Assembly (NCBI GenBank): GCA_934444645.1
Contig: CAKSCV010000011.1
Location: 2,626-66,625 of the forward strand
DNA length: 64,000 nt
Reading direction: 5' to 3'
Source: an uncultured Eubacteriales bacterium
GTDB taxonomy: Bacteria > Bacillota > Clostridia > Oscillospirales > CAG-382
Below the pieces are notes generated by a model that did no database searches, was not told the DNA's origin, and worked only from the letters and a program-made list of their open reading frames with translations. The translations under genes and the position numbers were made by a program. Shown in pieces: positions 1,291-50,525 of this stretch (the first letter of the stretch is position 1; each line of letters opens with the position of its first letter).

Positions 1291-2914
1291 GCCGCCGCAG
1301 GGCGGCGCAAAAGCACACGGAGTGTGCCGTCCCGGCAGGGACACCGCCGCAAGGTGGAAAAAAAGGATTTAATTGGATTGTGCGAATTTTTGGTTTTGTG
1401 CGCTGATTCAAGGTTTGCAGAACCTTGAATCTCCCTTAAAAAGGTTTTAATTGTTGTGGTACGAAGATGTTATTTTGGTGTGCTGATTTGAGGTTTGCGA
1501 ATCTCGAAACTCTCTGCAAAGGGAACGAGTTGTCACTTTTTGCATCGTGCAAAAAGTAACCAAAAAGCACGCGGGACTCCGTCCTGCGACCTCGATTCAA
1601 AGCTCTGCCGGAAAAGATTTTGTAAAGCTTTCCAGCGGCACGTATCGAAACCGGTTTTGCCTGCAAAACGCCGGCGAAAAGGCTTTGAATCGGTGCGAAA
1701 GGGTTACCGTAGTGCAGACGCAAGACTGATGTTTTTCGAAAATGGATTGTTGTACTGCAAGCTCATAGTAGCATGCGGTATTCGAAAAAGGGTTGCTGCA
1801 CGTTAGCTTTGGTGCAGTGCGAAATTGGAGTTTTGCAGTGCTGAAATGAGTTTTTTCTTTATCGGTTTGCTTTGCATGAGCCAAAAAACGCCTTTATCGC
1901 GAATCAAGAAACTTTCATTAGCAGAAAGCCTTACGAACTTCACTCAAAGCCGCTTTTTACGTACAAAAACTTCTTTTGCACGTGCCTTTCTTCGCTGTCC
2001 GCAAAAATTTCCATTTTCATAAACCAAAAGTTTTCCATTTACAGACAGCTTTACGCTTTGCCCTCAAAAGCCTCTCGTTTTCGCAACCAAAACATCGCTC
2101 GTTCGAACAACTTTTTACTGTCCTCAAAAGACGCTTTTTTTACGTACAAAAAGCCTTTTATTCGCACAAAACCTTTTTTATTGCCACCCAAAGCAATCTT
2201 TTTTGCCCTCCGCCTCCCATTTCAACGTCCCTTAACCTACTGTTTGCAAAGAATACAGCTGTTCTTTTGCTGTTCGCTCTAATTTTGTGCTGTAAAACCG
2301 GAACCTCGCACCGATTCAAATCATTGCCGGCGATACCCGGAAAACTGCAGTTTTCTGCGTTGCCGGTTACCTGATGAATGCCGGTCACTTTCGCTTCAAA
2401 AACGTATCGACCGGCGATTTGAATCGAGGTCGCAGGACGGAGTCGTCTCCTTGAAACATGGTCGCCTTGCTCACGTCCGTTCGCAATTCTCCCTGTTTCG
2501 GCGGTCTCCGACGCACAAAAACTTGCCACCGGCAACTTTTTGCACGTCCGAGCATGCTTTTTGGTTACTTTTTGCACGATGCAAAAAGTGACAACCCGTA
2601 TCCCTTTGCAGGGAGTTTCGAGGTTTTGCAAACCTTGATTCAGCTCACCGCAATGGCAGCTTCGCACCGCAACAATTAAAACCTTTGTAAGAGAGCTCCG
2701 AGGTTTTGCAAACCTCAAATCAGCCCGCCGCAGCCACAGCTTCGCACCGCAACAATTAAAACCTTCTTCAGGGAGCTTCGAGGTTCTGCAAACCTCGAAT
2801 CAGCGCACCAAAACAATAACTTCGCACAATCCAATTAAATCCTTTTTTTCCGCCTTGCGGCGGTGTCCCTACCGGGACGGCACACTCCGTGTGCTTTTCG
2901 CCGCCCTCGGCGGC
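1291..2914 (+). repeat. Foldback-like non-coding mosaic element, copy A (1624 bp)
   Basis: Terminal inverted repeat GCCGCCGCAGGGCGGCGCAAAAGCACACGGAGTGTGCCGTCCCGG...GGATTTAATTGG at 1291-1375 pairs with its reverse complement at about 2830-2914. Two left and three right palindromic units (GATTCGAGGTTTGCAAACCTCGAATC type). Core at 1699-2305 lies between TTGAATCGGTGCGA and TCGCACCGATTCAA. Only short, non-conserved ORFs. Confidence 0.9.
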
Positions 2915-3046
2915 TATATCTCTGTTGCTGACGCAACATTTGCCGCCTGCGGCGGCATTTCCCGGCGGCAAAGCCGCCTTTATCCCTTTCCTTTCGGAAA
3001 GCTTTTTCCGAGGTTTATCAAACCGCAGATATTTACGAAAAGCATA

Positions 3047-3075
3047 TTGAAAAAGCAAATAAACTGTGCTATAAT
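3047..3075 (+). promoter_or_regulatory. Near-consensus sigma-70 promoter for the histidine kinase gene
   Basis: TTGAAA at 3047-3052, 17-bp spacer, extended -10 TGcTATAAT at 3067-3075. Confidence 0.6.
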
Positions 3076-3134
3076 ATTATGATAAGAAATCTGCCCCTGT
3101 ACGGTAAAAAGCCACGCAAAGGAGTTTTTGAAAT

Positions 3135-9518: not shown

Positions 9519-9669
9519 TTTTCCACAGACATAACAAGGACTTTTCAACCGGGTGTTGAAAATAAGCGGAAAAATTTTCCACAGGCAATCCCCCGATCTT
9601 CAACAGGTTTTCCACAGAAGAGATGGACGCATTTTGGCTTGGTTATGGGGGTTGCGGACTTTTCCACAG
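9519..9669 (+). promoter_or_regulatory. Cluster of four identical TTTTCCACAG 10-mers (DnaA-box-like, TT[A/T]TNCACA)
   Basis: Exact copies start at 9519, 9575, 9608 and 9660, all in the same orientation. The first two are embedded in the palindromes GGAAAACGTTTTCC and GGAAAAATTTTCC. An AT-rich stretch follows at about 9680-9730. Confidence 0.45.
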
Positions 9670-9737
9670 TTTCAACACCCCCTACTACTACTATACTCCT
9701 ATAATAAGAATAAATGTATAGGATATATCACGCAAAG

Positions 9738-11150
9738 TTGCCGCGAAGCGGCGAGCCGAATCGAGGTTTGGAAAACCTCGGAAAAACGCTTTCCGAAAGG
9801 AAAGTGTTAAAGGCGGCGGAGCCGCCGAAAGATTGCCGCCGTAAGGCGGAAAAAGGATTTAATTGGACTGTGCGAAGTTGTTGTTTGGGTGCGCTGATTC
9901 GAGGTTTGCAGAACCTCGAAACTCCCTGCAAAGGGGACGTTTTTACATTCTTTTTGCGTCGTGCAAAAAGAATCAAAAAGCACGCCAGAGGTTTGCGAAC
10001 CTCTGGACTCCGGGGAACGATTCAAAGCTCTGTCAGAAGCAATTTTGCAAAGTTTTCCGGCGGCTTCTGCCGAAACCGGGTTTGTCCGCAAAACGCCGGC
10101 GTAAAGGCTTTGAATCGGTGCGAAAGGGTTACCGTAGTGCAGACGCAAGACGGATGTTTTTCGAAAAAGAGTTATTGTACTGCAAGCTTACAGCAGCAAG
10201 TGCTATTCTAAAAGGGTTGCTGCACGTTAGTTTGGGTGCGGTGGAAAATTGAAATTTTAGTATGCTGAAAAATACTTTTCTTTATCAGGTGGTTTTGCAT
10301 GAGCTGAAAAAACAGCCCTTTTCCGCAAAACAAAAGGTTTTCGTTTACAGAAAGCTTTACGCTTTGCCCTCAAAAACCGCTCGTTTTCGCAACCAAAACA
10401 CCGCTTGTTCGAACAACTTTTTACTGTTCTCAAAAGCCGCCTTTTTTACGTACAAAAAGCCTTTTATTCGCACAAACCTTTACTTATTCCCACCCAAAAC
10501 AACTTTTTTCCACCCTCCACCTCCCATTCGCACCACCCTTAACCTACTGTCCACAAAAGAATACAGCTGTTCTTTTAATCTTTGCTCTAACTCCTTACGC
10601 TGTAAAGCCGGAACGTCGCACCGATTCAAATCATTGCCGGCGATACCCGAAACATTACAGTTTTTCGCTTAGCCGGTTACCTGATGAACGCCGGTTCTTT
10701 TAACAATAATTACGTATCGACCGGCGATTTGAATCGTGGGTCGCAGGGCTTCGCCGACTCCTTGAAACATGGTCGCCTTGCTCACGTCCGTTCGCAATTC
10801 TCCCTGTTTCGGCGGTCTCCGACGCACAAAAACTTGCCACCGGCAACTTTTTGTACGTCCGAGCATGTGCTTTTTGGTTACTTTTTGCACAACGCAAAAA
10901 GTGACAACCCGTACTCCCTCGCAGGGAGCTTCGAGGTTCTGCAAACCTCGAATCAGCCCACAAAACAACAAATTCGTGCAATCTAATTAAATCCTGCCGG
11001 GAACTTTTCCCTACTTTTTATAGGGCACAAAAAGTAGACCAAAAAAGCTTTTGCCCCTATCGGGGCAGCACGCCTTGCGTGCAAAAACTCCCTTTCGGGA
11101 GCTTCGAGGTTCTGCAAACCTCAAAGCAGCTCGCCGCAGCCGCGGCTTCG
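9738..11150 (+). repeat. Foldback-like non-coding mosaic element, copy B (about 1.41 kb)
   Basis: Same module order as copy A. Core at 10124-10615 lies between TTGAATCGGTGCGA (10110-10123) and TCGCACCGATTCAA (10616-10629). An extra outer arm extends to 11150. Confidence 0.9.
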
Positions 11151-11191
11151 TATATAATAAATTTTTTCGCAAACTTGAAAAGGAGATTCTC

Positions 11192-12886
11192 ATGGAAAAA
11201 AATACCCTCGTCTATGATGTGCGCCCCATCTCTACCATCCGCGAACTCATCGAAACCAGTGCCGATGAATTCAAAAACCGCACCGCGTTCGTCTTGAAAG
11301 ACAACGATAAACTCTATGAAAAACGCTATCATGACGTCCTTGAGGACGTGAAAAATCTTTCAACTTTCTTAAATGCCCGCGGCTTTGAAGGCAAACGCGT
11401 GGCTGTCATCGGCAAAAATTCCTATAACTGGGCACTCACCTACCTTGCCGTCACCAGCGGTACCGGCGTAATCGTCCCCATCGATAAAGATCTCAAGGCT
11501 CCCGAAATTACCAATATTTTAACACTTTCCGAGGCAAGCGCCGTCCTCTTTTCGCCTGAGCTTGCTTCTACTGTTGCTTCTATCGATCTGCCGCTCGAAA
11601 AGCTCCCTATGGCCGATATGAATACCTATCTTGCCGAGGGTTCAACCCTTCGCATCGGCGGTGATATGTCCTATGAAAAGCACGTTATCGACCCATATGC
11701 CCTCGGCGTTCTCATTTATACCTCCGGTACGACGGGTATTGCCAAAGGTGTTATGCTCAGTCAATATAATATCTGTTCGGACATCGTCGCTGTTCTTAAA
11801 CAGGTTAAAATCACGCCTGAGGACAGAACTCTCTCGGTTCTTCCGCTTCATCATACCTATGAAAGCATGGCAGGATTTTTGAGTATACTGTATTCCGGCG
11901 CAAGCATTGCCTATATGACAAGCCTTACGCATTTGCTTGCCGATTTCCGCGAATATCAGCCCACCATTTTCATTGCCGTGCCGCTTCTTTTGAAAACCGT
12001 GCATAGCGGTATTATCAAAAAAATAAAGGCTGTGCCCGGCGGCAGTGCCTATCTTGTGGTCGGCAAGGCCATTACCACGCTGTCCGGAGCATTTTCCTAT
12101 CAGGTTGCCTCCAAAGTATTTGCAAACATTCATGCGGCTTTCGGCGGCAAATTAAAGACCATTCTCTGCGGTGCTGCGGCGCTTGATCCGGCAATTTTCA
12201 GGGATTTTCAAAAGCTTGGCTTTCATATGATGTGCGGCTATGGACTTACCGAAACGTCGCCGATCTGCGTCATGCACAGCGATCATGTCATCAAGCCCGG
12301 CACGGTGGGCTTGCCCATTTGCGGCTCAAAAGCGAAAATTCTCGATCCGAACGATGAGGGCATCGGCGAGCTTGCCGTTAAAGGTCCAAACGTGATGCTC
12401 GGTTACTATAAAAATCCCGAAGCTACGGCGGAGGCTTTTACGGCGGATGGTTATTTCCGCACGGGTGATCTTGCCAAAATCGATCCGGCAAGCGGTCATT
12501 ATATCATAACCGGCCGTATCAAGAACATGATTGTCATCGGCAACGGCAAAAAGGTTTTTCCGGAGGAAATCGAATATTTGCTCGAAAAATGTGATGGAGT
12601 GAAAGAATGCATGGCTTACGGACACGTCGATGAAGAGGGATATGTGACGGTGGCTGTGAAGATCTTTCCGGATTTTGATTATCTGAAGAAGCAAGGCATT
12701 GAAACGGAAGGCGAAAACGCGAAAAAGGCGCTCGAAGAGTATTTCCGCACGGTTGTCAAGGAAAAGGTTAACCGGAATCTGCCCGGCTATAAAGCGGTAC
12801 GCAAAATAACGCTGCGCTATCGCGAATTTGACAAGACCACCACCAAGAAGATTCGCCGCAATTCGGCGGACAACATGGAGGAATAA
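11192..12886 (+). CDS. AMP-dependent acyl-CoA synthetase/ligase (long-chain fatty acid-CoA ligase-like)
   Basis: AMP-binding motif LIYTSGTTGIAKGV, and GYGLTETS, GDL and GRIKNMI motifs. The ATG at 11192 follows the RBS AAAGGAG. The longer ORF from 11051 runs into the repeat element. Confidence 0.88.
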   Translation: MEKNTLVYDVRPISTIRELIETSADEFKNRTAFVLKDNDKLYEKRYHDVLEDVKNLSTFLNARGFEGKRVAVIGKNSYNWALTYLAVTSGTGVIVPIDKDLKAPEITNILTLSEASAVLFSPELASTVASIDLPLEKLPMADMNTYLAEGSTLRIGGDMSYEKHVIDPYALGVLIYTSGTTGIAKGVMLSQYNICSDIVAVLKQVKITPEDRTLSVLPLHHTYESMAGFLSILYSGASIAYMTSLTHLLADFREYQPTIFIAVPLLLKTVHSGIIKKIKAVPGGSAYLVVGKAITTLSGAFSYQVASKVFANIHAAFGGKLKTILCGAAALDPAIFRDFQKLGFHMMCGYGLTETSPICVMHSDHVIKPGTVGLPICGSKAKILDPNDEGIGELAVKGPNVMLGYYKNPEATAEAFTADGYFRTGDLAKIDPASGHYIITGRIKNMIVIGNGKKVFPEEIEYLLEKCDGVKECMAYGHVDEEGYVTVAVKIFPDFDYLKKQGIETEGENAKKALEEYFRTVVKEKVNRNLPGYKAVRKITLRYREFDKTTTKKIRRNSADNMEE

Positions 12887-12900: not shown

Positions 12901-14146
12901 TGTGGGAGTTCGAGGTTTGCAAAACCTCGGAACTCCCTGCCCCGACAGGGGCAAACTTTCCGAAAGGAAAGTTTCAAAGTTTTTTGCCCTACTTTTTGTA
13001 TTTTACAAAAAGTAGGAAAAATCCGCCGAGGGCGGCAAAAGGATTTAATTGGTTTTGTGTGAAGCTGTAATCTTCGTGTGCTGATTCGAGGTTTGCGAAA
13101 CCTCGGGATTCCCTTTGGAAAAGGATTTAATTGTTGCGGTACGAAGCTGCGGCTGCGGTGTGCTGATTCGAGGTTTGCAGAACCTCGAAACTCCCTGCAA
13201 AGGGACGTTTTTCGTGCTTTTCGCTTGTACGAAAAGAACCAAAAGTACACCAGAGGTTTGCGAACCTCTGGACTCCGGGGAGCGATTCAAATCTCCGCTC
13301 GATACATGACTTTTGCTAAATTGACCGGCCATCATCATGTAACCGGCCGCGCCGGGAACCGCAAGGTTTCCGGGTATCGCCGGGGAGGATTTGAATCGGT
13401 GCGAAAGGGTGGCTGTAGTGCTGACGCAAGACTGATGTTTTTCGAAAATGGATTGTTGTACTGCAAGCTTACAGTAAGTTATCGCGGATAAAATCTGTGA
13501 CTGCGTGTTAGCTTTAGTGCAGTGGGAGATTGGATTTTCCTGTGCTGAAAAAAGCTTTTCTTTATCGGATAGCTTTGCATGAGCCGAAAAAACAGCCCTT
13601 TTTCGCAAACCAAAAGGTTTTCTTTTGCAGAAAACTTTTTAACCGTACTTGAAAGTCAGCTGTTTTTACAAACTAAAAAGCTTTTCTTCTGCACAAACCT
13701 TTCCTTTTTCCCACCCAAAATAACTCTTTTTTGCCCTCCGTTGCCCGTTCCAACCACCCTTAACCTACTGTTTGCAAAGAATGCGGCTGTTCTTTTGCTG
13801 TTCGCTTTAATTTTGTGCTGTAAAGTCTGAGCGTCGCACCGATTCAAAGCCTTTTCGCCGGCGTTTTGCAGGCAAAACCGGTTTCGACATGAGCCGCCGG
13901 AAAGCTTTACAAAATCTTTTCCGGCAGAGCTTTGAATCGTCCCCGGAGTCCAGAGGTTCGCAAACCTCTGGCGTGCTTTTTGGTTCTTTTTGCACGACGC
14001 AAAAAGAACGTAAAAACGTCCCCTTTGCAGAGAACATCGAGGTTCCGCAAGCCTCGATTCAGCCCGCCGCAGCCGCAGCTTCGCACCGCAACAATTAAAA
14101 CCTTTCAAGGAAGCTTCGAGGTTCCGCAAACCTCGAATCAGCCCAC
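12901..14146 (+). repeat. Foldback-like non-coding mosaic element, copy C (about 1.25 kb), core flipped relative to arms
   Basis: Core at 13405-13833 is in the same orientation as in A, B and D, but the arm modules either side are exchanged and inverted (Y' on the left, X' on the right). Bounding inverted repeats at 13391-13404 and 13834-13847. Confidence 0.88.
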
Positions 14147-14201: not shown

Positions 14202-15314
14202 ATGAAGAACAAGTACGATGTCGCCGCCTATATCTGGCCGAGCTATACCGGCGACGAGCCGAGAACACGCATCTTTTGGCCGGAGGGCTACGGCGAATGG
14301 CAGACCGTCAAGGCCGCTATGCCAAAATTTCCCGGACACAAGTGGCCGCGCAAACCGCTGTGGGGCTATGTCAACGAGGCTGACCCATATGTCATGGAAA
14401 TGCAGATAAACGCTGCCGCCGACCATGGCGTCAATGTGTTTATCTACGATTGGTATTGGTTCGATAACCGCCCGTTCCTCGAACAGTGCCTGGATAACGG
14501 CTACTTAAAGGCTAAGAACAACGACCGCGTCAAATTCTATATCATGTGGGCAAATCATACCGCGACCACGCTTTGGGATAAACGCACCGCACATCTTGAT
14601 GTGCCGATCTGGGATCACGGCGCAAGTCCCGAAATGTTCAAAACCATCTGTGAACGCATGATTGACCAGTATTTCTTACATCCGTCCTATTATAAAATCG
14701 ACGGCAAGCCGGTCTTTATGTTCCACGATTTGTGCAACTTTCTCTACGGTATCGGCGGCATTGAAAACGCGAAACGCGCTTTGTACGATTTCCAGAATAT
14801 GGCCATCAAAGCCGGTCTTCCCGGCGTCCATATTCAAGATTGCTTGCGCGGTGCAGACACCATGAAATACCGTGACCCGGCACTCGGCTTTGACGGCAGT
14901 ATGGCGGATGCGGTCGATCTTCTCGGCTTTGACAGCACTACACACTACCAGTTCTGCGGCGTAGTCGACATCAAGCGTTCCTACCCTGAAGCGCTTGCCG
15001 ATATGGTCAAAGAATGGGATAAAACGCGCGAAAGCTACAAAGCGCCCTATTTTCCCCATGTGTCGCTCGGCTGGGACACCAATCCGCGCTTTGAAACGGT
15101 ACGTGACGATATTCTCACCGACTGCACGCCGGAGAATATCAAAAAAGCGTTTATCGAAGCCAAAAAATACATTGATGCCCATCCGGAGCTGCCTGTTCCG
15201 CTTGTGGTGGTCAACAGCTGGAACGAATGGACTGAAACCAGTTATTTCGAACCGGATGATTTGTATGGCTATGGCTATTTAAACGCCTGCAAGGAAGTCT
15301 TTTTAGGAAAATAA
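14202..15314 (+). CDS. WbsX-like / GH99-like domain protein, paralog 1
   Basis: Family-typical NVFIYDWYWF and NSWNEWTETSY motifs. No signal peptide. The ATG at 14202 has better RBS spacing than the GTG at 14193. Confidence 0.8.
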   Translation: MKNKYDVAAYIWPSYTGDEPRTRIFWPEGYGEWQTVKAAMPKFPGHKWPRKPLWGYVNEADPYVMEMQINAAADHGVNVFIYDWYWFDNRPFLEQCLDNGYLKAKNNDRVKFYIMWANHTATTLWDKRTAHLDVPIWDHGASPEMFKTICERMIDQYFLHPSYYKIDGKPVFMFHDLCNFLYGIGGIENAKRALYDFQNMAIKAGLPGVHIQDCLRGADTMKYRDPALGFDGSMADAVDLLGFDSTTHYQFCGVVDIKRSYPEALADMVKEWDKTRESYKAPYFPHVSLGWDTNPRFETVRDDILTDCTPENIKKAFIEAKKYIDAHPELPVPLVVVNSWNEWTETSYFEPDDLYGYGYLNACKEVFLGK

Positions 15315-16497: not shown

Positions 16498-16500
16498 GCA

Positions 16501-17664
16501 TAAAGCCGCCGCAAGGCGGCTTTATATATTTGCGAAGCCGCCTTGCGGCGAGCTGAATCGAGGTTTGCGAACCTCGAAATTCCCTTAAAAAGGTTTTAAT
16601 TGTTGCGGTGCGAAGATGTCACTGCGGTGGGCTGAATCGAGGTTTGCAAAACCTCGGAAGTTCCCGAAAGGGAGACGGGTTTATTCTTTTTGCGTTGTGC
16701 AAAAAGAACCAAAAAGCACACCAGAGGTTTGCGAACCTCTGGACTCCGGGGACGATTCAAAGCTCTGTCGGAAGTGATTTTGCAGAAATTTCCGGCGGCT
16801 TCTGCCGAAACCGGTTTTGCCCGCAAAACGGCGGCGAAAAGGCTTTGAATCGGTGCGAAAGGGTTACCGTAGTGCAAACGCAAGACTGATGTTTTTCGAA
16901 AAAGGATTATTGTACTGCAAGCTCACAGCAGCAAGCGATATTCGAAAAGGGTTGCTGCACGTTAGCTTTGGCGCGGAGGGAATTTGAATTTTTTGTATGC
17001 TAAAAAAAGCTTTTCTTTATCGGATAGCTTTGCATTAGCTGAAAATCTGCCTTTTTCGCAAACCAAAAGGTTATCTTTTGCCGAAAACTTTTTAACCGTA
17101 CTTGAAAGTCACCTGCTTTTACAAACCAAAAGCATTTCTTTTGCACAAACCTTTACGAACTGCCCTCAAAAGCCGCCTTTTTTACGTTCAAAAAGCCTTT
17201 TATTCGCACAAACCTTTCTTTATTCCCACCCAAAATAACTCTTTTTTGCCCTCCGCCGCCCCTTTCAACGCCCCTTAACCTACTGTTTGCAAAGAATACA
17301 GCCGTTCTTTTGCTGTTCGCTCTAAATCCTTATGCTGTAAAGCCGGAACGTCGCACCGATTCAAATCCTCACCGGCGATACCCGGAAAGGTTGTAATATC
17401 CGGTGCCGCCGGTTACATGATGATGGCCGGTCGTTTCCGCAAAAATCATGTATCGAGCGGAGATTTGAATCGAGGTCGCAGGACGGAGTCCCGTGTGCTT
17501 TTTGGTTACTTTTTGCACAATGCAAAAAGTAACAACCCGTTCTCTTTGCAGAGAATATCGAGGTTCTGCAAACCTCGAATCAGTGCACACAAACAATAAA
17601 TTCGCACCAACAAAATTAAAACCTTAAAGGAGCTTCGAGGTTCTGCAAACCTCGAATCAGCGCA
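16501..17664 (+). repeat. Foldback-like non-coding mosaic element, copy D (about 1.16 kb)
   Basis: Same module order as A and B. Core at 16859-17350 is bounded by inverted repeats at 16845-16858 and 17351-17364. Confidence 0.9.
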
Positions 17665-18858: not shown

Positions 18859-19208
18859 GGGGGCGTAAAGGTTTCGACGGGGATCTTGAACGACGGTAAG
18901 CGAGCAGAGGTGCGGAAGCTCTTAAAAACGCCGCAATTCTAAAATTAAACGCTAATAATACAGAATTAGTAGCTGCCTAACTTAGGCGGCCGTCATACCT
19001 GTGAGGACTGCGGCACGGGCTATGGCGTCAATCAGCAGTGAACGTGAACGTGTCAATGCTTTGAGGCACGGCATGAACTGATAAGCTACCGGTTATGTGA
19101 GCCTGACGGCCGGCGCGCATAATGGGGAATCCTATTGACCGCCTACGCTCGTAGAAAGCTGTGGGAATGGGTTTTCGGACAGGAGTTCGACTCTCCTCGC
19201 CTCCACCA
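18859..19208 (+). ncRNA. ssrA: Transfer-messenger RNA (tmRNA)
   Basis: 5' GGGGGCGTAAAGGTTTCGACGGGG acceptor/TLD start. Tag reading frame GCT AAT AAT ACA GAA TTA GTA GCT GCC TAA (ANNTELVAA). 3' T-arm GGAGTTCGACTCTCC followed by TCGCCTCCACCA. Confidence 0.92.
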
Positions 19209-19209: not shown

Positions 19210-19239
19210 TCATTATCAAGTAATTGATAAAATAACAGG

Positions 19240-42111: not shown

Positions 42112-42268
42112 GTGATAAAGAAAAATCAGCGGATATTTTATGGGACATTATGTCACCTCCTATTGCAAAATCGTCGGAGGTATGGTAAAATATTCTTGCC
42201 GAAAAATTCTGTTTGACTTTTCGGTTCTTTCGTGGAAGCGATAACCTGCAAGATAAAGGGTGAGAACA

Positions 42269-43111
42269 ATGTCTTTTAGTAAAACCATTCAAATGTACAT
42301 ATTTGACGGGAACCCCAATGGGCGAATTATGTGTGAGCTTTCAAACTGGAATGGCCGCGTATATAAAATTTCAAGAAATGAGCTTGCTGAATTTTCTCAG
42401 AGAGAGGATTCGGAAAACACGGGTGTTTATTTTTTGTTCGGAAAAAACGAAGAAAACTGTGACACCGTTTACGTCGGAGAAGCGGAAAGAATGTTTTCAA
42501 GGATTAAGCAGCATTTAAGAGATTCCGAATATTGGAATGATTGCATTGCTGTTATCAGCAAAGATGATTTGCTCAATAAAGCACATGTAAAATATCTTGA
42601 AAACAAATTTTATCTATTGGCACAAAACGCCGGAAGAGCCGTTATTATCAACAATACGATTCCCACCTGTTCTTCTATATCGGAATACGATGAAGCAATG
42701 CTGCAAGAGTTTATCAACAACGCAAAATTGCTTGTAAACACACTTGGATTTAAAGTGTTTGATACAATTGAGGATACAGCCGTAAAACATAATGATACGG
42801 AACAGTATTTTTTCATAAAGGCAGCACGAGGAGCAGATGCTAGGGGTGTGGTTGTATCCGACGGGTTTGCCGTAATGCAAGGTTCAATTATTGCATCTTC
42901 TACAGTTCAAAGCATGTCAGAAAGTCTCAAAAAGCTGCGGAGTTCTTTGATTGAAAAAGGAATTATCGATGAAACTTTTAAGTTTACACGGGACTATATT
43001 TTTACAAGTCCCTCTCTTGCAGCAACGATTGTTATGGGGCGTAATGCAAACGGCCGCACAGAATGGAAAAACGAGGAACACAAATCCATAAGAGATATAG
43101 AAGAATCCTAA
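42269..43111 (+). CDS. GIY-YIG-like N-terminal domain protein with a DUF4357-like C-terminus
   Basis: GVYFLFG...VYVGEAE...RIKQH pattern, then a C-terminal region ending ...GRNANGRTEWKNEE. AT-rich gene. Confidence 0.55.
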   Translation: MSFSKTIQMYIFDGNPNGRIMCELSNWNGRVYKISRNELAEFSQREDSENTGVYFLFGKNEENCDTVYVGEAERMFSRIKQHLRDSEYWNDCIAVISKDDLLNKAHVKYLENKFYLLAQNAGRAVIINNTIPTCSSISEYDEAMLQEFINNAKLLVNTLGFKVFDTIEDTAVKHNDTEQYFFIKAARGADARGVVVSDGFAVMQGSIIASSTVQSMSESLKKLRSSLIEKGIIDETFKFTRDYIFTSPSLAATIVMGRNANGRTEWKNEEHKSIRDIEES

Positions 43112-43160: not shown

Positions 43161-43384
43161 ATAACAATGTTGCCGATTCGTTGCCGCAACTTCGCCTAAT
43201 CGGGACTTTTACGGGTTTACAGCCGGGAAAGTATCTCTTTGCAATCATTCCCACTCGCTCCCCGAAACCGTGACATAAACGATTTTGTATAGATGGTTTA
43301 GCTTCGATTATCAGGATTATTCAGATTATCCAAGAATTACGGTGTATCATATTCCTGTTGTCATTTAGTTGTCACACAAAAGTT

Positions 43385-43720
43385 TTAATTTCCTGTCACG
43401 TTGTTTTTGTAGTCCTCGCCCCAGTTCCACATAACGTCAAGTATCGGTTTGAGGCTTTGTCCTAATTCCGTCAGAGAATATTCCACTTTCGGCGGAACTT
43501 CGGCATATACCTCTCTGTGCACAAGTCCGTTTGCTTCCATATCACGAAGCTGTGCGGTCAATACCTTTTGCGATACCGTGCCGATGGATTTTTTCAGCTC
43601 GCCAAAACGCTTTGTTCCCGGCATCAAATCTCTCAATATCAGAACCTTCCATTTGTCGCCAATCAATGTCAAGGTGGTTTCCACAGGACAAGCCGGAAGT
43701 TCTTTTGTTTTCTCGTTCAT
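43385..43720 (-). CDS. HxlR-family transcriptional regulator
   Basis: CPVETTLTLIGDKWKVLILRDL... winged-helix signature. 111 aa. Confidence 0.88.
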   Translation of the reverse strand: MNEKTKELPACPVETTLTLIGDKWKVLILRDLMPGTKRFGELKKSIGTVSQKVLTAQLRDMEANGLVHREVYAEVPPKVEYSLTELGQSLKPILDVMWNWGEDYKNNVTGN

Positions 43721-44019
43721 ATGCTGCCTCCGCCATAGTATCTAATTATTGTTTACAGTATAATTGTACCATACCGCCCTGTTTACCGTCAAGTGCAACA
43801 TAAAAAATCTTAAAAATTTTTTTCAGCGTTTAAAACTCCGAAAACCCTGGTGTTTACGCATTAGTTTCTGTTCGGTAACCGCCTAATAGTATCTTTCGGG
43901 TAACTACGGCACAATATTGTGCTTACTTTACAAGTGATGCCTACGCAGATATAATAAAGTCATGAGCTGCGAAGAACGGCCGTTTTGCAACTCAAAGCAC
44001 AGACAAGGAGAAATCCAAA

Positions 44020-44853
44020 ATGAACATTTTCAAGAAAATCTTTGGTAATAACCAAAATGACAAGAAAGAGGTAATTACAATGACAAACACAGAAAAAGCT
44101 CTTGCACTTATTAACACTTTTGCCACAGGCGATACAGAAAAGGCTTCCGAGCTTCTTGCAGAAAATTACATTCAGCACAATCTCGCATACGGCACAGGCA
44201 GGGATGCTTTTGTAGGCTCTGTTTCCTACCTTGCTTCAGCTCCCGTAAAAACAACTGTAAACAACATTCGTGCTTTCGAGGACGGCGACAAGGTGTTCTT
44301 GCAGACGGTCTACAACTTTGCAGGTGCGGGCGAGCAGGTTGCCTTTGACATTTTCCGCTTTGACGAAAACGGAAAAATTGCAGAACACTGGGACAACCTT
44401 GCAAACAAGGCAGAGCCGAACCCGTCAGGTCACACGCAAACAGACGGCACTATGGAAATCAATGACCTTGATAAGACAGAGGCAAACCGTGAGCTCATAA
44501 AGAAGTTCCTTTATGATGTAATGCAAGGCAATCGTCCTGAAAAAACACCCGATTACTTTGACGGTGATACTTACATTCAGCACAACACAGGTATTGCAGA
44601 TGGACTTTCGGGACTTGGCGCAGCACTTGAAGCACTCGGCAAGCAGGGCATCCGGATGATTTATACTACTGTTCATCAGGTGCTTGCACAGGGCAATTAT
44701 GTGCTTGCAGTCAGCGAGGGAACTTTCGGCGGAACACCTACATCTTATTATGATTTGTGGAGAGTTGAAAACGGCAAAATTGCAGAACATTGGGATGTAA
44801 TGGAGACTATTGCCGATAAATCTACTTGGCAGAATCAGAACGGAAAGTTCTAA
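44020..44853 (+). CDS. SnoaL-like / NTF2-fold protein (tandem domains)
   Basis: Two repeats of the ...YIQHN...G...F...KI(A)EHWD pattern. Divergent from the HxlR gene. Confidence 0.65.
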   Translation: MNIFKKIFGNNQNDKKEVITMTNTEKALALINTFATGDTEKASELLAENYIQHNLAYGTGRDAFVGSVSYLASAPVKTTVNNIRAFEDGDKVFLQTVYNFAGAGEQVAFDIFRFDENGKIAEHWDNLANKAEPNPSGHTQTDGTMEINDLDKTEANRELIKKFLYDVMQGNRPEKTPDYFDGDTYIQHNTGIADGLSGLGAALEALGKQGIRMIYTTVHQVLAQGNYVLAVSEGTFGGTPTSYYDLWRVENGKIAEHWDVMETIADKSTWQNQNGKF

Positions 44854-44861
44854 AGAGAGCG

Positions 44862-44893
44862 AAAGCCACGCAAGCTCTTTCTTGCGTGGCTTT
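44862..44893 (+). terminator. Rho-independent terminator
   Basis: AAAGCCACGCAAG / CTTGCGTGGCTTT stem. Confidence 0.6.
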
Positions 44894-44915
44894 CCGCCTT
44901 TGTACGGAGGTAATA

Positions 44916-45530
44916 ATGAATTATCTTAAATATCTTACAGAAGAAATACATTCAATTGTTATGGCAACTGTGGACGAGAACGGCTTGCCTGTAACGTGTG
45001 CCATAGATATTATGGACTATGACGAAAACGGGCTGTACTTTCTTACCGCAAGGGGCAAGAAATTTTATGCTCGATTAAAGCGTGGCGAATATGTTTCTTT
45101 AACGGGGATGAAAGGCACTGACACGCTTTCCTGCGTTGCAATTTCTGTCAGAGGAAAGGTTCGGGAAGTCGAAAGCGATTATCTGAACAGGTTGTTTGAG
45201 AAAAACAGCTATATGTACGAAATCTATCCCACAAAAGAGTCACGCACGGCTCTTACCGTGTTTAGAATTTATGACGGATACGGAGAATGGTTTGACCTTT
45301 CAAAAAAACCTATTGAGAGAGCTTCTTTTTCATTTGGAAACGGTATAAAAACAGTTGACGGTTATTATATAACAGATAAGTGTATCGGTTGTAGGAAATG
45401 TATTGTAGTCTGTCCCCAGGGAGGTATTGATTTTACAAGCGGATACGCAAGAATTCTTCAAAGCAGCTGCCTGCACTGTGGGAATTGCTTTAATATTTGT
45501 CCCGAAAAAGCCATTGTCAAGAGAGGGTAA
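44916..45530 (+). CDS. Pyridoxamine 5'-phosphate oxidase-like FMN-binding protein fused to a 2x[4Fe-4S] ferredoxin domain
   Basis: N-terminal IVMATVDENGLPVTCAIDIM...LYFLTARGKKFY. C-terminal CIGCRKCIVVCP and CLHCGNCFNICP. RBS GGAGG before the ATG at 44916. Confidence 0.75.
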   Translation: MNYLKYLTEEIHSIVMATVDENGLPVTCAIDIMDYDENGLYFLTARGKKFYARLKRGEYVSLTGMKGTDTLSCVAISVRGKVREVESDYLNRLFEKNSYMYEIYPTKESRTALTVFRIYDGYGEWFDLSKKPIERASFSFGNGIKTVDGYYITDKCIGCRKCIVVCPQGGIDFTSGYARILQSSCLHCGNCFNICPEKAIVKRG

Positions 45531-45534
45531 GTTT

Positions 45535-46314
45535 ATGACGCAAGATAAGAAAAGACAATACTTGATAACAGAGTTGTTGAAAGAACGACCCGAATGCGCA
45601 GATATATTCATTCCAAACGACAAAACCGAACAGAAGAAATTGCTTCGTGCACTTTTTAATGTTCGTTTGCCTTTGCCGACAGGTGAGGAGTTTCTTAGGG
45701 TACAGGACGACTATTTGCAAGAGGAAATTGCTCAAAAAGGCATAACAAGTATAGATGATTTAGAGCCGATTAAACCTGATATTTATTTGTGGCAGGGCGA
45801 TATTACGACGCTGAAGTGCGATGCCATCGTCAATGCGGCAAACTCCGGCATGACCGGCTGCTATATCCCCAACCACCGCTGCATTGACAACGCCATTCAC
45901 ACCTTTGCGGGCGTGGAACTGCGGCTTGCCTGTGAAGAACGGATGGAACAGCAGGGCTATCCCGAACCCACCGGACAGGCAAAAATCACGCCTGCGTTCA
46001 ATCTGCCCTGCCGCTATGTGCTGCATACGGTCGGTCCGATCATCAGCGGGCGCGTGACGAAAGAAGAGGAAGAACTGCTGTCCTCCTGCTACCGCTCCTG
46101 TCTGGAGCTGGCAGAGGAACACAGTCTGGAAAGCGTGGCGTTCTGCTGTGTTTCCACGGGAGAATTTCATTTTCCCAATGAGCAGGCGGCAGAGATCGCC
46201 GTTGAAACCGTGAAACAGTTTATGAATAGAAAAACCAGTGTAAAGAAAGTGATCTTCAATGTTTTCAAGGATTTGGACAAAGCCATCTACGAAAAGCTGC
46301 TCCGAGCAGATTGA
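45535..46314 (+). CDS. Macrodomain protein (protein-ADP-ribose hydrolase type)
   Basis: LWQGDITTLKCDAIVNAANSGMTGC and SVAFCCVSTGEFHFP macrodomain motifs. Confidence 0.85.
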   Translation: MTQDKKRQYLITELLKERPECADIFIPNDKTEQKKLLRALFNVRLPLPTGEEFLRVQDDYLQEEIAQKGITSIDDLEPIKPDIYLWQGDITTLKCDAIVNAANSGMTGCYIPNHRCIDNAIHTFAGVELRLACEERMEQQGYPEPTGQAKITPAFNLPCRYVLHTVGPIISGRVTKEEEELLSSCYRSCLELAEEHSLESVAFCCVSTGEFHFPNEQAAEIAVETVKQFMNRKTSVKKVIFNVFKDLDKAIYEKLLRAD

Positions 46315-47119
46315 GCGGCTGAAAGCTGCATTGCAGGACTGTGACGCCGTTGTGATCGGTGCCGGAGCCGGTCTTTCCACCTCTGCCGGATTTATCTATA
46401 CCGGCGAGCGGTTTGAAAAATACTTTTCCGACTTTGCGGCAAAGTACGGCATCCGGGATATGTACAGCGGCGGCTTTTATCCGTTTGCCACGCCGGAGGA
46501 GCATTGGGCGTATTGGAGCCGGTATATCTTCATCAACCGCTATATGGATGCCCCCAAACCGGTCTATGATGCCATCTTAAAGCTGGTGCAGGACAAGGAC
46601 TATTTCGTTATCACGACCAACGTGGATCACTGTTTTCAGAAGGCAGGCTTTGACAAAAAGCGGCTGTTTTACACGCAGGGCGATTACGGCTTATTCCAGT
46701 GCAGCGAACCGTGCTGTCAGGAAACCTTTGATAACGAAGCCGTGATCCTCGAAATGGTCAAACGGCAGGAGAATATGAAAATCCCGACCGAACTACTGCC
46801 GGTCTGCCCCCACTGTGGGAAACCACTGACCATGAACCTCCGCAGCGATGATAAATTTGTGGAGGACGAGGGCTGGCACAGAGCCGCGGAACGATATGGA
46901 AATTTCCTCCGTACCCGTGACGGGCAGAAAATCCTCTTTCTGGAACTGGGCGTGGGCTACAATACACCGGTCATCATCAAGTATCCGTTCTGGCAGATGA
47001 CGGTGAAGAACCCGAACGCTACCTATGTCTGCATCAACCAAGGGCAGGCGGTGTGTCCGCAAGAGATCGAACAGCAGGCTATCTGCATCGACTCGGATAT
47101 TGGAGACATCTTATCTTAA
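46259..47119 (+). CDS. SIR2-family protein of the SirTM-like (class M) type
   Basis: VVIGAGAGLSTSAGFIYTGERF, YFVITTNVDHCF, TQGDYGLFQC and CPHCG zinc motifs. Only in-frame ATG upstream of the NAD-binding glycine motif, giving a 56-nt overlap with the macrodomain gene. An in-frame TTG at 46331 is the only other start upstream of that motif. Confidence 0.75.
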   Translation: MFSRIWTKPSTKSCSEQIERLKAALQDCDAVVIGAGAGLSTSAGFIYTGERFEKYFSDFAAKYGIRDMYSGGFYPFATPEEHWAYWSRYIFINRYMDAPKPVYDAILKLVQDKDYFVITTNVDHCFQKAGFDKKRLFYTQGDYGLFQCSEPCCQETFDNEAVILEMVKRQENMKIPTELLPVCPHCGKPLTMNLRSDDKFVEDEGWHRAAERYGNFLRTRDGQKILFLELGVGYNTPVIIKYPFWQMTVKNPNATYVCINQGQAVCPQEIEQQAICIDSDIGDILS

Positions 47120-47126
47120 CGGTATG

Positions 47127-47163
47127 ACAAAAAACGGCGGCAAGGAAAATCCCTGCCGCCGTT
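47127..47163 (-). terminator. Rho-independent terminator of guaA
   Basis: On the minus strand, ACGGCGGCAGGG / CCTTGCCGCCGT stem followed by TTTTTT. Confidence 0.7.
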
Positions 47164-47192
47164 GCGCTTATACCCTGTGTTCCGGGATGCAA

Positions 47193-49091
47193 TCATTCCC
47201 ACTCCACTGTAGCCGGCGGTTTACCGGTCACATCATACAGCACAAGTGAAACGACATCGCCGAAGCGTTCGACGATCTCGTCGCGCGCGGCCTTAAGCGC
47301 TTCCACCGGGAAATCCACACCCGGAAACGCCGACTGCGCCGTCATAAAATCGGTCGTGCAGACAGCACGCATGGCAACCGAATACTTCTTTCCCTCATGT
47401 GCCGAGACCGGAACCAGCACGGCAAAGCACTGGGCAATATTTTTATTCATCAAATGCCGCGTTGTGATATCGTCAAGCTCACGCAGCAGCTCTGCCGTTT
47501 CATGGCAGATGTGTGTCGGCGTGCAGACAAGCGGCTTGACACCGGCGGTTTCGTTCAGGCAATAGGTCACACGGTTGATATAATTCAACTCGTTCGGAAT
47601 CTTTTTGGCAAGCGCATACAGCTTTTCCATATCCGTATCTGCCGGATCTTTTGTTCCGTTTTTATTATAGAGAACCGTCATGTTTTTATAGGAACGGTGA
47701 TCGCCCTGCACGCCGACGCTTTGGATCGGTGCAAGGTCGGCCGCATAATCCGCATCCGTCTTTGCCACAAACGCGGTTAACGGCTCTAACTTTTCCTTAA
47801 TATCCGTTTCGGAAAGATTTCGTCCGCTGTGGTCGGTGCACAGAATGCGAACGCCAAGACCGGGACCCGGGAACGGCTGACGCGAAGCGATTGCTTCATC
47901 AAGGCCGAGCATCCGTGCGACCTGTCTGACCTCATCCTTATGCCAGTCCCAGTTGGTCTCGACCACATGACCGCGGTCACGTAATGCACGGATCACGCCG
48001 ACGTCGTTATGGTGTGTTTTGATTTTATGTGCATAGCCGCTTACATCGGGATTGCCGCTTTCAATAAGGTCGGGACGCAAGGTGCCTTGCCCGAGATAGG
48101 CGGTATCGAAATCCAAATTTAACTTTTTGGCGGCTTCTTCGGTCACCACAAAGAACATATGCCCGATGATGGCGCGTTTCTTTTCGGGTTCACAGGTTTG
48201 AGAAAGCGGTGCGTATTTTTCGCCCTCAATGGTGAGAGGCGTGTTGAAAAAAGCGTCCTCTGCGTTGATGCGCTGCATTTGGGTAAGGCCGAGGTCGGCG
48301 AGGTTGGCGCAAATGAGATCGGATTCATTTTTACGCATCATGCCATGGTCGATATGGATGCCATACACTTTATCCGAACCGAGTGCTTTGACAAGAAGTG
48401 CGGCCGTGACCGCCGAATCCACGCCGCCGCTGACAAGCACGATGACCTTGCCGTCGCCGACTTTTTCGCGGATCATGCGAAGGGAGGTTTCGATACGGTC
48501 CTCAAGCGCATAGGTCTGCTTGAAGCCGCAGATGCCGCGCAGGAAGTTTTCGAGCATTTTAACGCCGTTTACGGTTGGATCGACTTCGGGATGGAATTGG
48601 ACGGCGGCAATCTTTTTATCCGCATTATAGATGCCGGCAGTTACACCTTCGGTATCAGCGACCTTAACGAAACCGTCCGCCAGTTTTTCGACGGCGTCGC
48701 CGTGGCTCATAAGAACCTTTTGTTTTGCATCCAGTCCTGCAAAGAGAGGGCATGCCGGGTCAACGGAAATTTCGATCTGGCCGTATTCGGTTTTGAAATT
48801 CGGCACGACCTTGCCGCCGAAATGGTCGTTTACGAGCTGCATGCCGTAGCAGATACCGAGTGTCGGGATGCCGAGGTCAAAAAGATGTTCATCGTATTCG
48901 GGAGCGCCCTTTTCCCAAACGCTGGAGGGGCCGCCGGAGAGAATCATTCCGCCGAAGTTTTTTAATTTCTCGGGATCGACGCCAATCGGGAAAATTTCGC
49001 TTTTCACGCCGAGTTCGCGCACTTTACGGTCGATGACCTTGGTATACTGGCCGCCGCAGTCGAGAATGGCACATTTTTCTTCCATAAGCAT
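47193..49091 (-). CDS. guaA: GMP synthase (glutamine-hydrolysing), long form
   Basis: GATase motif ILDCGGQYTKVIDRKVRELGV...GICYGMQ, ATP-PPase P-loop LVSGGVDSAV, C-terminal ...YDVTGKPPATVEWE. I prefer the start at 49091 (MLMEEK) because of the RBS AGGAA. Confidence 0.9.
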   Translation of the reverse strand: MLMEEKCAILDCGGQYTKVIDRKVRELGVKSEIFPIGVDPEKLKNFGGMILSGGPSSVWEKGAPEYDEHLFDLGIPTLGICYGMQLVNDHFGGKVVPNFKTEYGQIEISVDPACPLFAGLDAKQKVLMSHGDAVEKLADGFVKVADTEGVTAGIYNADKKIAAVQFHPEVDPTVNGVKMLENFLRGICGFKQTYALEDRIETSLRMIREKVGDGKVIVLVSGGVDSAVTAALLVKALGSDKVYGIHIDHGMMRKNESDLICANLADLGLTQMQRINAEDAFFNTPLTIEGEKYAPLSQTCEPEKKRAIIGHMFFVVTEEAAKKLNLDFDTAYLGQGTLRPDLIESGNPDVSGYAHKIKTHHNDVGVIRALRDRGHVVETNWDWHKDEVRQVARMLGLDEAIASRQPFPGPGLGVRILCTDHSGRNLSETDIKEKLEPLTAFVAKTDADYAADLAPIQSVGVQGDHRSYKNMTVLYNKNGTKDPADTDMEKLYALAKKIPNELNYINRVTYCLNETAGVKPLVCTPTHICHETAELLRELDDITTRHLMNKNIAQCFAVLVPVSAHEGKKYSVAMRAVCTTDFMTAQSAFPGVDFPVEALKAARDEIVERFGDVVSLVLYDVTGKPPATVEWE

Positions 49092-49128
49092 GAGGAGAGA
49101 TTCCTTTCCTATCATATCATAATACAAT

Positions 49129-49157
49129 ATTATAACAGTTTATCCGGAGATTTTCAA
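49129..49157 (-). promoter_or_regulatory. Consensus sigma-70 promoter for guaA
   Basis: On the minus strand, TTGAAA, a 17-bp spacer and TATAAT. It lies about 30 bp from the edge of repeat copy E. Confidence 0.6.
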
Positions 49158-49186
49158 GGGGTTAGTATGAACTTTTTGATTTTTTG

Positions 49187-50525
49187 AGAAGCTCCCTTAT
49201 AAAGGTTTTAATTGTTGCGGTGCGAAGATGTCACTGCGGTGTGCTGATTCGAGGTTTGCAAAACCTCAAAGCTTCCTTGAAAGGTTTTAATTGTTGCGGT
49301 GTGAAGCTGCAGCTGCTGTGTGCTGATTCAAGGTTTGCGGAACCTCGAAGCTTCCTGCGAGGGAGAACGGGTTGTCACTTTTTGCATCGTGCAAAAAGTA
49401 ACCAAAAAGCACGCGGGACTCCGTCCTGCGACCTCGATTCAAATCGCCGGTCGATACGGTTTTGAAGCGAAAATGACCGGCGTTCATCAGGTAACCGGCT
49501 ATGCTGAAAACTGCAACTTCGTCGGGTATCGCCGGCAATGATTTGAATCGGTGCGACGCTCCGGCTTTACAGCACAAAATTAGAGCGGACTGCAAAAGAA
49601 CGGCTGTATTCTTTGCAAACAGTAGGTTAAGGGGCGTTGAAAGGGGCGGCGGAGGGTGGAAAAGGATTGCTTTAGATAGTAATAAGGAAAGGTTTGTGCA
49701 AAAGAAATGCTTTTGGTTTGTGAAAATGGGCGTTTTTTGAAACCAGCAAGGAAAGGCTTGTGCAAATGAAGAGCTTTTGTATGTAAAAGGGCAGCTTTTG
49801 AGGGCGGTTCGTAAGCTTTCAGTAACTTTTGGTTTGTATAAATGGAAATTTTTTCGGACAGCGAAGAAAGGCACGTGCAAAAGAAGTTTTTGTGCGTAAA
49901 AATGGCTTTGAGTAAAGTTCGTAAAGCTTTCTGCTAATGAAATTTTCTTGATTCGCGATAAAGGCGTTTTTTGGCTCATGCAAAGCTTGCTGATAAAGAA
50001 AAACTATTTTTCAGCACACCGCAGCAACAACTTCGCACTGCACCAAAGCTAACGTGCAGCTGCAAATTTCATCTGCGAAAACCCACTGTGAGCTTGCAGT
50101 ACAACAATCCATTTTCGAAAAATATCAGTCTTGCGTCTGCTGTACGGTAACCCTTTCGCACCGATTCAAAGCCTTTTCGCCGCCGTTTTGTGGGCAAAAC
50201 CGGTTTCGACAGAAGCCGCCGGAAAACTTTGTAAAATCACTTCTGGCAGAGCTTTGAATCGTCCCCGGAGTCCAGAGGTTCGCAAACCTCTGGCGTGCTT
50301 TTTGGTTCTTTTTGCACGACGCAAAAAGAATAAACCCGTCTCCCTTTCCGGGGAGCTCCGAGGTTTCGCAAACCTTAAATCAGCATACCGCAGCTGCAGC
50401 TTCGCACCGCAACAATTAAAACCTTTTTCAGGGAGTTTCGAGGTTTTGCAAACCTCGAATCAGCGCACATAGCAGGCAACTTCGCACAATCCAATTAAAT
50501 CCTTCCGCCGCCTGCGGCGGCAGAA
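49187..50525 (-). repeat. Foldback-like non-coding mosaic element, copy E (about 1.34 kb, reverse orientation)
   Basis: Full reverse complement of the A/D-type layout. Core at 49557-50155 is bounded by TTGAATCGGTGCGA (49543-49556) and TCGCACCGATTCAA (50156-50169). Confidence 0.9.

Follow-up and report, generated by a model that had tools for sequence, protein, structure and literature searches.

The described systems closest to the repeat reported here are the repetitive extragenic palindromes (REPs) of Enterobacteria and Pseudomonas, with their bacterial interspersed mosaic element (BIME) and REPIN arrangements and their RAYT transposases; the foldback (FB) transposons of Drosophila and other eukaryotes; bacterial MITEs (miniature transposable elements with inverted repeats) such as Correia, BOX, RUP, ERIC, and Nezha; invertons and shufflons, including Hin/Gin-type and Rci-type systems and the invertible promoters of gut Bacteroides and Clostridia; and large noncoding RNAs (ncRNAs) such as HEARO/IscB omega RNA, OLE, GOLLD, ROOL, and raiA. 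BIMEs span at most a few hundred nucleotides; MITEs are typically shorter than about 600 nt, with sharp conserved terminal repeats, target duplications, and a recognizable parent insertion sequence (IS); and FB elements produce target duplications and have coding capacity in some copies. Here we describe a repeat present in five copies (c1 to c5) in a 64,000-nt stretch of DNA from an uncultured Eubacteriales bacterium (assembly GCA_934444645.1, contig CAKSCV010000011.1, positions 2,626 to 66,625), which we refer to as the window. Elements of this kind are gene free, hairpin rich, and 1.1 to 1.7 kb long, and the five copies together span 6,786 nt, or 10.6% of the window. With a probability of about 0.5, we interpret them as a lineage-restricted, noncoding, foldback-like mosaic repeat whose copies evolve by recombining at the inverted repeats they contain.

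The element resembles the REP systems in being intergenic and noncoding, in its high copy number, in its short palindromes of alternating orientation, and in its terminator-capable hairpins, but it differs from them in its length, in a nonpalindromic core of 334 to 650 nt, in the absence of a terminal tag, and in its Firmicute host. REPs, as defined in PMC3733652, are imperfect palindromes of 20 to 40 nt with a GTAG or CGTC tag at one end, whereas the hairpin modules here are 13 to 30 nt long, have flanks of the form GCTGATT-CGAGG..CCTCG-AAAC or AAAG-CCGCC..GGCGG-CTTT, and carry neither tag. The resemblance to FB transposons is one of form only, and no homology is claimed: in both, long inverted arms composed of tandem sub-repeats enclose a middle that varies and that some copies lack (here, loci L024 and L051 of related DNA), and both tend to promote rearrangements, but there is no sequence relationship, and neither the target duplications of FB elements nor the coding capacity that some FB copies have was seen here. 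We know of no described bacterial foldback family, and none turned up in the searches that we made. With bacterial MITEs, the element shares a nonautonomous and intergenic character, modularity (in the case of BOX), and inverted-repeat ends, yet its termini are ragged, its innermost repeat is the most conserved, and no parent IS was found in 0.92 Mb of related DNA. Like invertons and shufflons, it contains a segment of a few hundred nucleotides between short conserved inverted repeats that occurs in both orientations, as well as several repeated sites within one element; unlike them, it has no adjacent recombinase, no internal promoter or coding segment, and no within-locus polymorphism in the data at hand, and its invertible part is embedded in a much larger palindrome that exists in dozens of copies. 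The large ncRNAs are of the same size class and also hold many hairpins, and HEARO is multicopy and linked to mobile DNA, whereas the present element has no covariance-model match, a variable core orientation, weak covariation, and no associated protein gene that we could find. In size, end definition, GTAG/CGTC tag, and parent IS, the element is outside every bacterial family for which these properties could be compared. A preliminary description of this DNA had called it longer and more modular than REP/BIME, BOX, ERIC, or Correia-type repeats.

Five copies of one long imperfect palindrome

The preliminary description had placed five copies in the window, similar along their entire length, and both a repeat search of the window and a five-copy MAFFT alignment (A1) bear this out. 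The copies are as follows; types A and B denote the orientation of the core relative to two diverged arm forms, M4 and M9, and OPT is an optional module.

c1, 1291..3030, plus strand: core repeat at 1291-2914, with outer small GC hairpins to about 3030; M4 left, M9 right, core forward (type A); OPT module present
c2, 9735..11150, plus strand: type A, with OPT module
c3, 12901..14146, plus strand: type B (core forward, arm forms swapped and inverted)
c4, 16500..17664, plus strand: type A; reference copy for module coordinates
c5, 49187..50525, minus strand: type A

All five intervals are interlinked by direct and inverted matches of 100 to 300 nt at 62 to 95% identity, such as the 266 nt at 94% between 16663-16928 and 50086-50351, and one 91-nt block is common to four copies at 91 to 95%. 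The alignment, for which c5 was reverse-complemented, spans the entire length with a mean column identity of 66%. The right boundary of c1 had originally been set at 2914, which is correct for the core repeat; the element itself runs on to about 3030, since small CCGCC..GGCGG and CTTTCC-GAAA-GGAAAG hairpins, which in the window are confined to element interiors and edges, extend that far. Of the motif counts made by eye, that of about 22 copies of the 18-mer CGAGGTTTGCAAACCTCG did not survive, there being a single match at up to two mismatches. The real unit motif is 19 nt long with a 5-nt loop (CGAGGTT-TGCAR-AACCTCG), and the pattern GAGGTT-N3-8-AACCTC occurs 21 times in the window, every time within one of the five elements. 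The count of five for a related palindrome was accurate: the 22-nt CCAGAGGTTTGCGAACCTCTGG is present exactly five times against an expectation of zero. The statement that every intergenic region between 9.5 and 17.7 kb carries a copy has to be corrected to three of the four gaps, the 40-nt gap between two WbsX genes having none.

Each copy is one long imperfect palindrome whose arms are strings of self-folding hairpin modules. Module mapping gives the order, from outside to inside, as fringe hairpins, one to three units (U), M2, M3 or M10, a hairpin of about 100 nt, a 15-mer, and the core, followed by the mirrored arm. The modules, in c4 unless stated otherwise, are located as follows.

16540..16672, plus strand: left-arm tandem units of about 80 nt, with mirror units at 17553-17664
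1365-1523, 2613-2845, 9851-9934, 10926-11150, 13038-13203, 14032-14146, 49201-49363, and 50353-50500: equivalent unit arrays
16683..16742, strand not assigned: M2 and M3 hairpins
9985-10006, 13250-13271, 13950-13971, and 50272-50293: other M3 sites
16753..16852, plus strand: M4, a hairpin of about 100 nt bounded by CGATTCAAA / TTTGAATCG
17357-17472: M9, the diverged mirror form of M4
16844..17365, plus strand: core, between TTTGAATCGGTGCGA (16844-16858) and TCGCACCGATTCAAA (17351-17365)
1684-2320, 10109-10630, 13390-13848, and 49542-50170 (the last on the minus strand): other cores
16910..16981, plus strand: G.U-rich long hairpin in the left core (alignment A3 columns 68-141), folding on the forward strand only
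2446..2550, plus strand: OPT, an optional 105-nt module of c1, with a second copy at about 10758-10861

The unit reads AAAGGWTTTAATTG..CGAAG..GCTGATT-CGAGGTT-TGCAR-AACCTCG and is followed by a small hairpin with a GNRA loop; Tandem Repeats Finder reports arm units of 79 to 80 nt at 2619-2827 and 49189-49356. The M2 hairpin is CTTTTTGC-GTTG-TGCAAAAAG (written CTTTTTGC..GCAAAAAG in the module mapping), and after it stands M3, the CCAGAGG hairpin, CCAGAGGTT-TGCG-AACCTCTGG, which in c3 is found in each of the two arms. M4 and M9 are diverged but homologous (alignment A2), and most copies hold one of each. The 15-nt inverted repeat TTTGAATCGGTGCGA / TCGCACCGATTCAAA flanks the core in nearly every copy and is perfectly conserved; TTTGAATCG is found most often in the context of this 15-mer (55 distinct sites). 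The core that it encloses is asymmetric, with a conserved G/T-rich left part, a variable number of T/C-rich sub-repeats, and a conserved right part. Mini versions that lack the core and consist only of units and M2 occur in L024, L051, and L064. Conservation peaks at the inner 15-mer, and the outermost ends are heterogeneous between copies (A1 columns 1-200 and 1600-1804). A partial internal duplication was seen in L155 (11421-12938), where the left core part, the 15-mer, M4, and a unit are each present twice.

Noncoding character and database searches

The absence of Pfam matches and the frame-blind pattern of indels support the earlier judgment that the open reading frames (ORFs) inside the elements are not coding. 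None of eight internal ORFs, the longest included, has a Pfam match at an E value of ≤0.1; ORF lengths and frames vary from copy to copy; and of the 59 indel events that distinguish the copies, only 9 have a length divisible by three. When one spurious element ORF served as the query in a protein search, 187 different Pfam-less "proteins" of 100 to 250 amino acids (aa) were returned, nearly all of them singletons, and such a variable-length collection is the signature of translated repeat DNA. One Pfam-less ORF of 157 aa has been called over the left arm of c2 (9738-10211).

The domain search of the window agreed with the previous finding that the elements lack a transposase, cas genes, and unique spacers. 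No transposase is encoded within the 64 kb. A Zn_ribbon_recom fragment (23475-24098) is the one recombinase-like ORF that the window contains; it lies in an island next to the transfer-messenger RNA (tmRNA) gene and is unrelated to the elements. A CRISPR array was considered and rejected, as the 80-nt units are 62 to 87% alike, have only about 14 variable nucleotides, occur in one to three copies, are mirrored in the other arm, and are accompanied by no cas domains.

When the whole window was searched against Rfam, the tmRNA alone passed the gathering score. Inside the elements, in a search at E values of ≤1 that covered all copies except c5, the best E values ranged from 0.017 to 0.93, far below gathering scores, and these chance-level matches (rmf, MISL, MicX, c-di-GMP-I-GGC, CsrC, and mir-619) all fall on fringe hairpins or terminators. 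No model was matched at its gathering score, GOLLD, ROOL, OLE, and HEARO-type RNAs included, in line with the preliminary description, which did not recognize the element as any of these four. Plasmid and phage collections (searched by blastn) and IMG/VR (by pattern scans) gave no match to the element, and a literature search by motif string and by the name UMGS882, the species introduced below, found no description of it.

Distribution and rearrangement of the family

The core 19-mer was found at 12 sites in GTDB, all in a single species, uncultured Clostridiales bacterium UMGS882, apart from one additional chance match. Of 119 metagenome stretches found with the unit hairpin pattern, 19, mostly environmental, show no element homology, and those with the element come almost entirely from human-gut records. 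Copies were also recovered from Hadza gut assemblies, from a JGI sample, and on a 979-kb long-read contig (ERZ28754618:contig_23284), and the family is present in at least three related lineages of human-gut Clostridiales, UMGS882 among them. A sister subfamily carries the compensated stem pair CGGTTCAAA / TTTGAACCG. Most matches lie at contig ends, oriented as expected of neighboring repeats, and the repeat therefore fragments short-read assemblies of these gut Clostridiales.

Comparison of the same sites between relatives indicates how copies change. All five window sites are occupied in relatives, with flanking DNA that is 86 to 96% identical, and enough of the relative's element was recovered at two of them, those of c1 and c3, for orthologous elements to be compared; at both, the relative's element proved to be reshuffled or replaced. 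At the c1 site in L100, the flank is 91.6% identical and the element only 67 to 75%, with the arm forms swapped; at the c3 site in L138, where the flank is 85.7% identical, the element has a different module set and includes OPT, although c3 has none. In L078, from a more distant relative whose genes are 72 to 77% identical, recR is followed by an element that has no counterpart at that place in the window, and the OPT-adjacent block of this element is still 91% identical.

The orientation of the core relative to the arm forms was scored in 28 distinct copies. The order M4-core-M9 with a forward core (type A) is seen in 13, a core turned the other way relative to the arm forms (type B) in 10, and M9 on both sides in 4, the count of 13 versus 10 being one between copies and not within one locus. 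Both types are present in the window and in UMGS882, with junctions inside the 15-mer. In addition, unit number varies, modules come and go, and core-less copies exist. One element has two right flanks: in L152 and L153 compared with L154 (about 9950-11290), the left flank (a BipA/TypA gene) is the same and identity is 99.4% to the outer end, beyond which different Hadza samples have a lipoprotein/ABC transporter operon versus arginyl-tRNA synthetase, a difference due either to true rearrangement at the repeat or to chimeric assembly. Copies thus change mainly by rearrangement, and core inversion, module shuffling, and this switch of flank suggest that the element recombines at its inverted repeats and that dispersed copies recombine with one another; they lend support to the role of a recombination substrate, one of those suggested in the preliminary description.

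The data do not show that such rearrangement is fast, as the assembled orientation is always the same at the three loci seen in two to four independent samples (c2, c3, and the BipA-adjacent element of L152 to L154). At the c4 site, L143 (2488-2822) has a flank that is 99.3% identical and switches inside a unit-hairpin loop to a sequence closer to c5 (88%). This junction is probably a repeat-induced misjoin but could be a real replaced copy; an inverted c4 interior was rejected as its source, the identity to the reverse complement of the c4 right arm being only 81%. Contigs carrying the WbsX genes break inside the arms.

Mobility, conservation, and folding

In our preferred interpretation, that of a foldback-like mosaic repeat, the elements would have spread in the past as nonautonomous DNA moved in trans by an enzyme that recognizes the hairpins or the invariant repeat, and they would now persist as selfish or structural DNA. 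Outward-facing terminator-like hairpins may limit harm to neighboring genes, and the inverted and dispersed repeats would drive inversion, conversion between copies, and genome rearrangement. The proposal of a terminator block receives partial support from M3 (the CCAGAGG hairpin), which on the outward-reading strand has a T-run behind it and resembles a terminator; M3 stems have double changes in 11 of 27 cases and only two unpaired cells. A survey of hairpin stems with loose anchoring proved too noisy for use except for M3.

A number of observations weigh against this interpretation, and they begin with the enzyme. All-against-all clustering of the 1,328 ORFs of 159 loci (0.92 Mb) revealed no recurrent transposase or recombinase family that could move the elements. 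All recurrent ORF families are either ordinary genes or spurious ORFs within elements, and the orientation of units at contig ends, which was also checked, is that of neighboring elements and not of arms enclosing an ORF; the autonomous partner whose existence the preliminary description had raised was not found with an ORF in that DNA. Direct evidence of mobility is likewise missing: no target-site duplication was found, the element boundaries being too ragged to call duplications; no element-free flank pair was found among the 159 loci; and the five window sites are occupied in relatives. Conservation is lowest at the ends and highest at the innermost junction, whereas a classical transposon would show the reverse. 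What stands of the suggested nonautonomous foldback transposon is its architecture; the target-site duplication, the empty site, and the ORF-bearing partner are the parts that were not found.

Conservation and folding add further points on the same side. OPT, found in 28 loci, is 96 to 100% identical in 18 unique copies, including those of the species whose genes are only 72 to 77% identical, and the adjoining blocks differ by 10 to 30%. Its hairpin, a symmetric A-run / TTGCCACYGGCAA / T-run, is rated terminator-like whichever strand is read; pairing is kept through G.U on one strand only, and the folding z score is −4.9. The left core has a 43-pair consensus structure that is 97.3% paired, compared with 93.7% in shuffles (none of the 500 is as highly paired) and 38 to 48% with slid partners, although consensus structures were derived from the same alignments that were used to score pairing. 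Its alifold score is −55 forward versus −34 reverse, and G.U cells number 298 against 34 A.C, a count inflated by the G/T-rich composition of the favored strand; many positions are G.U, changing on one side with the pair kept. Of 184 small hairpins between units, 90 have a GNRA loop on one strand and 1 has it on the other; their stems vary, and the bias is equal in both arms. We suggest that the conservation of OPT, the left-core fold, and the GNRA bias reflect an RNA or single-stranded DNA function that a purely selfish-DNA account does not explain. The near invariance of the 15-mer, the left core, and OPT does not look like neutral decay and would imply either sequence-specific recognition by a protein or a fold of strand-specific RNA or single-stranded DNA.

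For M4 and M9 alike, the better fold is on the strand that runs forward in type A copies; M9 has no compensatory pairs, most double changes trace to two variants of one apical stem, and whole-core folding z scores are modest (−2.45 and −1.66). The main unit hairpin has no strand bias of G.T versus A.C, as expected of a DNA palindrome. The promoter search found none that recurs at a homologous position and predicted none inside the core.

Alternative explanations

A multicopy family of large structured ncRNA genes, transcribed across the core from M4 toward M9, with the hairpin arms forming part of the RNA or insulating it, is unlikely, though the most probable of the rivals. It would account for the strand-specific left-core structure with pairing above shuffles and slid partners, for the shared strand preference of M4 and M9, for the GNRA loops on varied stems of one strand, for the one-strand G.U pairing of the OPT hairpin, for the terminator-like hairpins at the exits, and for blocks that are far more conserved than their neighbors. 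However, with 10 of 28 copies having a core that runs opposite to its arm forms, no single fixed RNA can cover arm, core, and arm, and the idea in the preliminary description of a large structured RNA over the whole element is improbable on that ground, a strand-specific structure within the core being possible from the folding models. The missing recurrent promoter, the scarcity of compensatory changes, the modest whole-core z scores, the inflated G.U counts, and the lack of an Rfam family further reduce the case for RNA, and the GNRA bias, being equal in both arms, may be inherited through the inverted repeat; GNRA and GAA loops, moreover, stabilize DNA hairpins too. If, instead, a recombinase acted on the 15-nt repeat, and perhaps on the four CGATTCAAA / TTTGAATCG sites, the element would be an invertible switch or shufflon-like system in which flipping of the core would alter transcription toward or away from neighboring genes. 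The perfectly conserved inverted repeat around nearly every core, the abundance of both core orientations even within a single genome, and the location of several copies upstream of genes for DHHW, an AMP-binding enzyme, and WbsX glycosyltransferases, which are related to the envelope or to polysaccharides, speak for such a switch, as does the fact that 15 nt is short for RecA-driven recombination. We nevertheless consider it rather improbable, given the constant orientation at c2, c3, and the BipA-adjacent element, the probable misjoin behind the sole alternative junction (L143), the lack of a recombinase gene adjoining any copy and of a predicted promoter inside the core, the copies between convergent genes that would regulate nothing, and the partly lineage-biased orientation types, which fit old events followed by propagation.

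More doubtful still is a giant REP/BIME-type cluster, in which domesticated palindromes would be copied by a single-copy RAYT-like tyrosine (HUH) transposase encoded elsewhere and retained for terminating transcription or stabilizing mRNA ends. The elements are indeed intergenic mosaics of many short conserved hairpins whose stems are kept by paired changes (in M3 and in the subfamily pair described above), the M3 and OPT hairpins are terminator-like, and small versions made only of units exist, but the elements are 3 to 10 times longer than described BIMEs, neither a RAYT gene nor any other Y1 transposase was seen in the window or among the 1,328 ORFs, and the conserved nonpalindromic core has no counterpart; the hairpins also lack the GTAG or CGTC tag that PMC3733652 reports for most REPs. 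Least credible, to the point of being negligible, are decayed genes, prophage remnants, or an assembly artifact: gene callers do put ORFs of 100 to 250 aa in the elements, yet these ORFs have no Pfam match, differ in length and frame between copies, and have indels that ignore frame, there are no phage matches, the same copies recur at 99 to 100% identity in independent assemblies, and the family is also on the long-read contig. Set beside the foldback-like repeat that we prefer, a bolder variant can be entertained tentatively: an undescribed class of element, in dozens of insulated and dispersed cassettes, whose conserved core would be a strand-specific RNA or single-stranded DNA that is flipped or exchanged at the 15-mer by an enzyme.

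Genomic context and neighboring features

The genes that flank the copies are ordinary chromosomal ones, encoding a GalE-like epimerase, a histidine kinase, RecR, a topoisomerase IV/gyrase A subunit, a DHHW protein, an AMP-binding enzyme, two WbsX glycosyltransferases, GuaA, and a metallo-beta-lactamase-fold protein, and the copies are confined to the intergenic DNA. In the two cases of each that were read directly, they lie past the terminator of the upstream gene and ahead of the downstream gene's own promoter; the downstream promoters, read by eye, are TTGAAA-17-TGcTATAAT at 3047-3075 outside c1 and TTGAAA-17-TATAAT at 49157-49129 outside c5. In related contigs, copies also stand between convergent ORFs. 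A rule that the right end always faces a gene start was rejected, as it fails for c4 and for elements between convergent genes.

Other features of the window were noted in passing. The tandem WbsX-family paralogues (14202-15314 and 15355-16464), 40 nt apart, are 76 to 87% identical in nucleotide sequence over several blocks. Between the DHHW gene and c2, four exact DnaA-box-like TTTTCCACA motifs lie on the plus strand within 150 nt (9519-9668); these are the 4 matches in the whole window against 1.2 expected, a number reached in 2 of 100 shuffles. In L003 (930-1352), from one sample, the recR position holds an ORF of 140 aa in place of the 209-aa RecR; overall identity is 98.5% and there are 25 gaps, a pattern suggesting that recR is frameshifted or rearranged in that strain or assembly.

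The tmRNA gene (18859-19208) encodes the tag ANNTELVAA and is followed by a low-GC island of about 5 kb (tmRNA region, 18859-24330) with SHOCT/bPH proteins and the Zn_ribbon_recom fragment. A relative (L124) with flanks 96 to 99% identical has a different 2.4-kb segment in place of the tmRNA-adjacent island, and the region downstream of the tmRNA gene looks like a variable island. A 4-kb block at 43185-47193, encoding SnoaL-like, PNPOx/4Fe-4S, Macro-domain, and SIR2-like proteins, is missing in L114, where the flanks are 90 to 94% identical; GC content is 0.38 to 0.44 around 42 to 46 kb, and a DUF4357 protein is encoded just upstream (42260-43111). This block may be an accessory or defense-type island.

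Implications

Bacterial genomes are normally compact, and a gene-free repeat of 1.2 to 1.7 kb that occupies a tenth of 64 kb and exists in dozens of copies is unusual. It explains small contigs in short-read assemblies of these gut Clostridiales, and the 15-mer, OPT, and the two-way core provide testable predictions of a recognizing protein or of a functional RNA or single-stranded DNA. Should the elements prove to be flipped or exchanged cassettes with a strand-specific core, they would constitute a multicopy invertible RNA system, or a hairpin-guided mobile element without known counterpart, and not inert repeats. If movement or flipping occurs, no earlier foldback-type system in bacteria is known from our searches, and the elements would also be a source of strain-level rearrangement in an abundant, uncultured gut lineage.

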